Positions 2,856 to 3,134 of a stretch of DNA of 4,496 nt are shown one piece after another. The first letter of the stretch is position 1. Each line of letters starts with the position of its first letter. This DNA is from a virus (Duplodnaviria > Heunggongvirae > Uroviricota > Caudoviricetes), in IMG/VR virus record IMGVR_UViG_2740892234_000016. One strand, written 5' to 3'. The notes under the pieces are model-generated. The model was not told the origin of the DNA and searched no databases. It saw nothing but the letters and a program-made list of their open reading frames with translations. Both the position numbers and the translations under genes were made by a program.

Positions 2856-3134
2856 ATGTTCAGAATCATTTTTCCTAACACCTGGTACGTCGACCACCAC
2901 GGCACTCCCTGCAAAATCCTGCGTTCTACCCACAACAAAGTTCACTACATCCGAAAAGGCAGAACATGTATCGCCAGCATGTTCCGCTTTAATCATGACT
3001 TTGAACCTGTGAATAAAGCTGATGCAGATCGGATAGCAGAAGAGATCGAAACGGCAGAACACATTAAGAAGTTACGTGACATGCGTTCAAAAAGCAGAGG
3101 TAACCATGGAATCATACAGCCTCACACTCGATGA
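2856..3134 (+). CDS. Hypothetical phage protein (92 aa), His/Cys-rich N-terminal half
   Basis: [95 protein letters not shown] has a strong ribosome-binding site (GAGGTG at 2845-2850, 5 nt before the ATG). It overlaps the xis start by 29 nt. It sits where Rac-type prophages carry small accessory genes next to xis. Confidence 0.55.
   Translation: MFRIIFPNTWYVDHHGTPCKILRSTHNKVHYIRKGRTCIASMFRFNHDFEPVNKADADRIAEEIETAEHIKKLRDMRSKSRGNHGIIQPHTR

Follow-up and report, generated by a model that had tools for sequence, protein, structure and literature searches.

Identification of the Gene

The stretch of viral DNA analyzed here, hereafter the window, is 4,496 nt long and comes from the IMG/VR record IMGVR_UViG_2740892234_000016 (Caudoviricetes). 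The open reading frame (ORF) at its positions 2856–3134 is a real gene, already catalogued as a member of the known DUF4222/RgdR family, and represents an ordinary phage accessory gene. Its product of 92 amino acids (aa) is predicted to consist of a small beta-barrel and a long C-terminal helix, and may tentatively be regarded as an early-made, low-specificity binder of DNA or of the transcription machinery.

Residues 3–53 of the protein match Pfam family PF13973 (DUF4222) over profile positions 1–53 of 53 (E 1.9e-19, 69.4 bits, cut-off 27). The match to phrog_285, annotated as "unknown function", covers profile positions 1–82 of 83 (E 3.2e-38), and the RefSeq entry is WP_000488407.1, "DUF4222 domain-containing protein". 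No matches were obtained in NCBIfam, PADLOC (E up to 0.1), and PDB-sequence searches with the protein, and no clear housekeeping homolog was found. A nuclear-receptor DNA-binding domain was the best hit in a profile search of solved structures (E 0.064), and it was judged to be a chance match. Literature searched for DUF4222, RgdR, WP_000488407, phrog_285, PF13973, and vb_24B_1c yielded the work on RgdR and passing mentions only. This agrees with the first-pass annotation, made from the DNA letters alone, which gave the function as unknown.

The ORF starts with ATG at 2856, the earliest possible start past the preceding stop, and ends with the stop codon at 3132–3134. The duplex of its Shine–Dalgarno sequence GAGGTG with the 3' end of 16S rRNA has an energy of −9.5 kcal/mol; with this value, it ranks second among annotated starts and belongs to the best 5% of the window's ATGs. 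Of the annotated starts, only that of a 27-codon peptide ORF at 2196 forms a stronger duplex (−10.3 kcal/mol). The ribosome-binding site, noted earlier as the strongest in the window, is indeed strong, but it is second to the one of the peptide ORF. The reported overlap with the start of xis was confirmed; it is 29 nt long, counted from the xis ATG at 3106, and the annotation of Shigella phage SfI is arranged alike.

The first 79 codons were aligned with those of the homologs in phage 21, HK639, Salmonella phage S9-5, and Klebsiella phage 2b. In the plus frame, the ratio of nonsynonymous to synonymous substitution rates (dN/dS) between the window and these four phages is 0.12–0.38, which corresponds to purifying selection. 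Because of this selection and the 69-bit Pfam match far above the cut-off, the ORF is well beyond a chance open frame. The first-pass annotation had allowed for a minus-strand ORF at 2829–3062 as the real gene, in which case the plus-strand ORF would be spurious. That ORF stays open for 77 codons in the window, and the record of Salmonella phage S9-5 places a minus-strand ORF at the same spot. However, dN/dS in its frame is 0.8–3.5 against the same four homologs, stop codons interrupt the frame in three of them (phage 21, S9-5, and Klebsiella phage 2b), it has no PHROG match, and the Pfam and PHROG matches as well as the low dN/dS belong to the plus frame. The minus-strand gene was rejected on the basis of dN/dS and the stop codons, and its probability is considered negligible.

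In the public records of three of these phages, the DUF4222 gene is wrongly annotated or missing. The S9-5 record annotates the wrong strand over it (retrieved locus L005, 3013–3204), in HK639 a different overlapping plus-strand ORF, HK639_32, is annotated over it (retrieved locus L004, 3001–3240), and in Klebsiella phage 2b it is left unannotated (retrieved locus L006, 3001–3240).

Distribution of the DUF4222 Family

The 901-bp stretch at 2500–3400 has matches covering no less than 80% of its length in 942 of 5426 complete Escherichia coli genomes, and many of the matches listed are 100% identical. The family to which the annotated gene belongs occurs in about one sixth of complete E. coli genomes and in many sequenced lambdoid and Shiga toxin (Stx) phages. 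In tblastn, the protein has counterparts of 100% identity in phages ev243, 2G7b, PhiR34_1, and PhiR26_1. Its identity is 98% in SfI, 86% in phage 21, 74% in HK639, and 45% in Klebsiella phage 2b, and 35–40% in phiP27, BP-4795, phi24B, and many Stx phages. Scans of IMG/VR for related loci gave mostly identical loci.

The family has few members and a narrow taxonomic range. When 1.84 billion cluster representatives (clusters of 50% identity) were searched exhaustively with the profile, 91 clusters had E < 1e-3. Nine loci were found in GTDB species genomes, eight of them in Enterobacteriaceae and one on a contig binned as Bacillota. The latter, a 5.5-kb contig named "MAG: Bacillota bacterium" (JAEWTL010000063.1, locus L154), carries a 99%-identical copy of the E. 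coli prophage gene, which is probably the result of mis-binning or contamination. A 1438-aa dockerin-containing protein (P0298), seven stretches of which match the DUF4222 profile, was discarded as spurious; in Pfam these stretches are CHB_HEX_C/Fn3-associated repeats.

Position in the exo-xis Region

The genes of the window are arranged in the order exo (YqaJ), DUF1317 (lambda orf60a), DUF1382 (orf63), Dam methylase, orf61-like gene, TraR/DksA (orf73), DUF4222, Xis, and int, the last four being coded on the plus strand. The window corresponds to the end of a lambdoid prophage's early-left arm that is nearest to int, and the DUF4222 gene is the last gene of its exo-xis accessory region, as this region is called by the Wegrzyn and Donaldson laboratories. 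When compared with the lambda map, the gene lies between the orf73/TraR homolog and xis, in the orientation of exo, xis, and int. The region is transcribed from pL, early and non-essential, and collectively affects lysogenization and prophage induction (PMC8614690, PMC4195576, PMC10789677). It comprises a conserved block of orf60a, orf63, orf61, orf73, and ea22, followed by variable genes beside xis (PMC8614690). The earlier view of an accessory gene at a classic site next to xis and int is in agreement with this, as the gene occupies the variable slot of the lambdoid exo-xis region.

No sequence resembling a sigma-70 promoter was detected in 2400–3500, and a terminator-like hairpin with a T-run is present at 2512–2530, between the orf61-like gene and the TraR homolog. 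Together they would fit antiterminated read-through from pL. The hairpin may be due to chance, as shuffled sequence yields about as many such sites.

In lambda, the slot after the orf60a-orf63-orf61-orf73 block and directly before xis is taken by ea8.5 and orf55, which are likewise transcribed from pL, non-essential, and code for small proteins. Neither resembles the window protein in sequence or profile (hhalign probability below 1%), and homology to these positional analogs was rejected. Ea8.5 is a zinc-binding hybrid of homeodomain and zinc finger (PDB 2M7A; Donaldson 2021, PMC8614690), whereas the window protein lacks conserved metal ligands. Orf55 was modeled as resembling T7 Gp2 (PMC8614690). 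Comparable as well are vb_24B_1c of phi24B, the Stx-phage proteins, and L03 of phiP27, which are DUF4222 homologs (35–40% identity) coded by the last gene before xis. They belong, however, to a different subgroup without the His and Cys of the window protein, and they are also uncharacterized.

In about 25 distinct contexts, on which the statement on synteny rests, the DUF4222 gene is located zero to two genes upstream of xis/int. The contexts include phage 21, SfI, phi24B, phiP27, HK639, S9-5, Klebsiella phage 2b, and eight enterobacterial prophages. At least five types of xis were recognized beside it, namely P22-like HTH_17, a 60-aa HTH_17 (phi24B), a 139-aa HTH_17, DUF1233, and lambda-type (phage 21), and a gene for dATP/dGTP pyrophosphohydrolase or DUF7694 is sometimes inserted between the two. 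The constant position, which is directly upstream of xis/int or at most two genes away from it in all phage contexts examined, and the 29-nt overlap with xis in the window and SfI could point to an accessory factor of excision or integration, i.e., a small DNA-bending or Xis-assisting protein kept beside xis to work with the recombination module. Such a role is quite unlikely. One and the same DUF4222 subtype is found with unrelated xis/int modules, which speaks against a specific partnership, and the inserted pyrophosphohydrolase or DUF7694 gene sometimes separates it from xis. Furthermore, the RgdR branch of the family is found upstream of a primase in a phage-inducible chromosomal island (PICI) and not beside xis, lambda manages with the unrelated ea8.5 and orf55 in the slot, and a mosaic boundary where the exo-xis module ends explains the position equally well.

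Type of Prophage and Comparison with Rac

The integrase of the window is 99% identical to IntD of the K-12 prophage DLP12 (argU site) and 22% identical to IntR. In complete genomes, int is followed by tRNA-Arg (argU) and then fimZ, and in NZ_CP027387 tRNA-Arg is directly downstream. Because of the integrase and the argU tRNA after int, the prophage is classified as DLP12/argU-type and not Rac-type, so the Rac-type (IntR) context assumed in the first-pass annotation was not confirmed. In DLP12 of K-12 itself (NC_000913.3, 565858–566361; locus L164), pseudogenes of xisD and exoD abut and the exo-xis interval including the DUF4222 gene is deleted.

Small accessory genes are also located near xis in the E. 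coli prophage Rac, where rcbA and ralR are found, but the Rac integrase belongs to a different family. The suggested comparison with the xis-adjacent gene of Rac revealed no relationship, as RcbA gave no alignment in BLASTP and an hhalign probability of 0.2%. This bears on the idea that the gene serves restriction alleviation, exclusion, or anti-defense. The slot is non-essential, variable, and expressed early in a temperate phage, and thus a sort of site at which such genes occur, and ralR is two genes from xisR in Rac. On the other hand, the protein has no match among the known defense families of PADLOC, no similarity to RcbA, and no place in a Rac-type prophage, and the sole characterized relative is a regulator and not a defense or anti-defense protein. 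The idea was left unsupported, and a function of this kind is improbable.

Conserved Residues and Metal Binding

Conservation was counted per position over 38 cluster representatives. D13 and F49 are invariant (38/38), G16 and F45 are each kept in 35, and R33 in 29. In the C-terminal helix, L73 (29/38) and R74 (30/38) belong to a KLR motif at aa 72–74. The family core consists of the aromatic and turn residues Y/W/F11, D13, G16, Y/F31, R33, G35, F45, and F49 together with KLR, all of which are present in the window protein.

The protein was originally described as His/Cys-rich, with a possible small metal-binding knuckle in its N-terminal half. The peptides quoted there, WYVDHHGTPCKIL and HNKVHYIRKGRTC, are found in the ORF. 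With eight His among 92 residues, five of them within the first 47, the protein is rich in His; the label of Cys-rich fails because only two Cys, C19 and C38, are present. Its isoelectric point (pI) is 9.9. A small zinc-knuckle-like protein binding metal through these N-terminal residues would be consistent with the eight His and two Cys and with the retention of C19, H26, H30, and C38 in the closest subgroup (at least 64% identity). Across the family, however, C19 is conserved in 8 of 38 representatives and replaced with Val or Ile in 29, and H26 and H30 are kept in five each. The sole common candidate ligand is C38 (24/38), H14, H15, and H47 vary freely, and the median His count is 2.5. The homolog of Klebsiella phage 2b, 45% identical, has V19, D26, R30, and N38, so that all four candidate ligands are lost, and RgdR retains the Cys only. 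DUF4222 is the sole Pfam match, without any match to zinc-finger or metal-binding families, and the residues in question lie on strands of a beta-barrel that is predicted confidently without metal. As the candidate ligands are not conserved in the family, the knuckle was rejected; judged from sequence, the protein is not a metalloprotein, and metal binding is highly improbable.

Predicted Structure

The AlphaFold2 model, built from an alignment of 22 sequences, has a predicted local distance difference test (pLDDT) score of 80 overall and of about 90 in the barrel. Strands were modeled at aa 10–13, 18–24, 28–33, 36–41, and 49–51, and helices at 42–48 (short) and 54–81 (long). The protein is predicted to form an SH3/Tudor-like small barrel and, after it, a long amphipathic helix whose end is basic. 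The charge of the helix is polarized across the family, with a median of −2 in its N-terminal half and +3 in the C-terminal half plus tail, and the median pI of the family is 9.6, exceeding 9 in 27 of 38 members.

The score falls to 51 and then 42 in the final two ten-residue blocks of the model. Most homologs stop at aa 79 (...KKLRAQRAA), and the tail varies between contexts. The extra tail of the window protein overlaps the xis module and seems to be a side effect of how the modules are joined.

Foldseek found nothing better than E 0.03 in PDB and only uncharacterized phage barrels in BFVD. Generic SH3/Tudor/KOW-like barrels, such as FeoA, the C-terminal Tudor domain of UvrD/PcrA, CarD, HspQ, PWWP, and DUF1653, are 2–20% identical, with no significant Foldseek match and no sequence-level relation of DUF4222 to a solved structure. 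The fold neighbors of the model are metal-free barrels. The long charged C-terminal helix is particular to DUF4222 and not to the generic small barrels. The model suggests a fold class, yet this class names no ligand.

Relationship to RgdR

RgdR (ECs1581) is coded on CP-933C (OI-51), a PICI/cryptic prophage of E. coli O157:H7 Sakai (Flockhart et al. 2012, PMC3378721). As a pleiotropic regulator, it acts on the LEE1 promoter as an activator that does not depend on Ler, lowers motility, and raises Congo-red binding; these regulatory phenotypes were published for ECs1581 and C1493 only (PMC3378721). In an electrophoretic mobility shift assay (EMSA), RgdR bound DNA without sequence specificity, and an inactive natural variant did not bind (PMC3378721). 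An RGD tripeptide at its aa 20–22 was reported as important for activity (PMC3378721).

RgdR matches PF13973 with E 2e-23 and is 24% identical to the window protein (E 4e-6). Both have the core residues Y11, D13, G16, Y31, R33, G35, C38, F45, and F49, are small and basic, and have their genes in early operons of mobile elements from Enterobacteriaceae. In the model of a 96%-identical homolog of RgdR (P0121; pLDDT 76), strands and helices follow one another in the same order, with an equivalent helix at 77–96, so the predicted barrel and C-terminal helix seem to be common to both. RgdR differs in its N-terminal extension of 13 residues and in the RGD motif, in place of which the window protein has PNT. 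The location also differs, as the RgdR gene is directly upstream of the primase ECs_1582 on the PICI in the Sakai genome, whereas the gene of the window precedes xis in a lambdoid prophage. Since RGD aligns with P7-N8-T9, the window protein is classified as a member of the DUF4222 family and not as an ortholog of RgdR; it falls outside the RgdR functional group in this motif as well as in orthology and PICI location.

Putative Function

By analogy with RgdR, the protein is tentatively considered to be made early, to bind with low specificity either DNA or the machinery of transcription or the nucleoid, or both, and to tune expression around the lysis-lysogeny decision and induction; among possible functions this one is preferred, with a confidence that stays somewhat short of even. 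Soon after induction or infection, the N-antiterminated pL transcript would give rise to the protein. As with RgdR, binding would be to DNA at low specificity and/or to some component of transcription or the nucleoid, and would involve both the barrel and the basic helix. Expression of host or phage genes might be modulated in this way and the program of lysis-lysogeny and induction biased, as the exo-xis region does collectively.

Several points weigh against this reading. The identity to RgdR is only 24% and its RGD motif has P7-N8-T9 as the counterpart, a few members of the family are not basic (pI 5.8–6.7), and dependence of the gene on pL is inferred from gene order. The non-specific DNA binding of RgdR could be incidental to a basic protein. 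The literature contains no experiment on this subfamily, and vb_24B_1c of phi24B was never studied on its own. The mechanism of RgdR is still listed as unknown in a review from 2024 (PMC10877973).

An adaptor targeting a protein is somewhat unlikely. In such a case, the barrel would bind a host protein, e.g., the beta subunit of RNA polymerase, as the Tudor-like domains of CarD, Mfd, and UvrD do, or the nucleoid silencer H-NS, and reprogram transcription. The RgdR phenotypes, with LEE1 up, motility down, and Congo red up, may resemble the loss of H-NS function. The upstream neighbor codes for a putative binder of the RNA polymerase secondary channel of the TraR/Orf73 type, and several neighboring proteins are modeled as RNA polymerase modulators in the review of the exo-xis region (PMC8614690). 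However, RgdR bound DNA in EMSA and its non-binding variant was inactive (PMC3378721).

A broader function of the whole family is also conceivable, although unlikely. DUF4222 proteins would then be dedicated global modulators of host transcription in mobile elements, counter-silencing H-NS or docking on RNA polymerase via the Tudor-like barrel, and would be deployed early after induction by lambdoid phages and PICIs. If true, this would explain the effects of RgdR on LEE1 (up), motility (down), and curli/Congo red (up), as well as the persistence of the gene beside xis across unrelated recombination modules.

With the gene already annotated, its value is that of a pointer to a small family under purifying selection, fixed beside xis and with exactly one studied member. 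RgdR affects virulence gene expression in enterohemorrhagic E. coli and colonization of ruminants. A function of the phage subgroup would fill a blank in the lambdoid exo-xis region and could explain how the induction of prophages disturbs transcription of the host in E. coli strains that produce Shiga toxin.

Other Features of the Window

The coordinates of the gene, the parts of its product, and the other features are listed in Table 1.

Table 1. Position of the DUF4222 gene, its parts, and other features in the window.
Feature	Position	Strand	Evidence or remark
Shine–Dalgarno sequence GAGGTG	2844–2849	+	canonical; spacing of 6 nt to ATG 2856
CDS of DUF4222-family protein (92 aa; WP_000488407.1)	2856–3134	+	ORF list, Pfam, PHROG, RefSeq, dN/dS
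DUF4222 domain, aa 3–53	2862–3014	+	predicted SH3/Tudor-like five-stranded small beta-barrel
Long C-terminal helix, aa 54–81	3015–3098	+	AlphaFold2; N-terminal half acidic, C-terminal half basic, conserved KLR at aa 72–74
C-terminal tail, aa 82–92, and stop	3099–3134	+	low-confidence, subgroup-specific; 3106–3134 overlaps the start of xis
TraR/DksA-type C4 zinc-finger protein (lambda Orf73 homolog), upstream neighbor	2590–2808	+	zf-dskA_traR E 2.7e-9; phrog_54; RefSeq
P22-type excisionase (HTH_17), 123 aa	3106–3477	+	phrog_2907 E 6e-46, profile positions 2–117 of 117; Pfam HTH_17; equivalent of SfI xis
IntD-type tyrosine integrase	3333–4496	+	Pfam Phage_integrase E 5e-47; end of prophage
27-codon hydrophobic peptide ORF (MTTTECIFLAAGFIFCVLMLADMGLVQ)	2196–2279		truncated copy at 1305–1364; strongest Shine–Dalgarno sequence of the window

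The TraR/Orf73 homolog, and not the ORF flagged earlier for its His and Cys, is the real zinc-binding protein of this neighborhood. Orf73 is thought to bind the secondary channel of RNA polymerase. The xis ORF overlaps int by 145 nt. At xis, RefSeq/PGAP annotates only a 66-nt "incomplete" helix-turn-helix pseudogene, which is probably an annotation artefact for the P22-type Xis. In HK639, two genes upstream of the DUF4222 gene, HK639_34 (retrieved locus L004, 2482–2676) codes for a 64-aa protein (MSKVLKGERFQVGEIWQSPRGFLYKVVDVAGKEAVLRMG...); it has no Pfam match and, from its sequence, looks like another small beta-barrel protein.

A run of ten N at 1365–1374 is flanked by two direct repeats. 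The first pair is 260 nt long and 96% identical (852–1111 and 1378–1637), and the second is 60 nt long and 98% identical (1305–1364 and 2196–2255). The arrangement suggests that the window is a scaffold join or that two exo-xis alleles, with and without the Dam methylase cassette (1642–2199), are collapsed in it, and the 3' end of exo and the DUF1317 gene therefore appear twice.

The 27-codon hydrophobic peptide has no match in Pfam. The stop codon of its ORF overlaps the start of the next gene as ATGA. At the corresponding place, phage 21 (CPT_21_39, "putative secreted protein") and SfI (gp32) have small peptide genes annotated.

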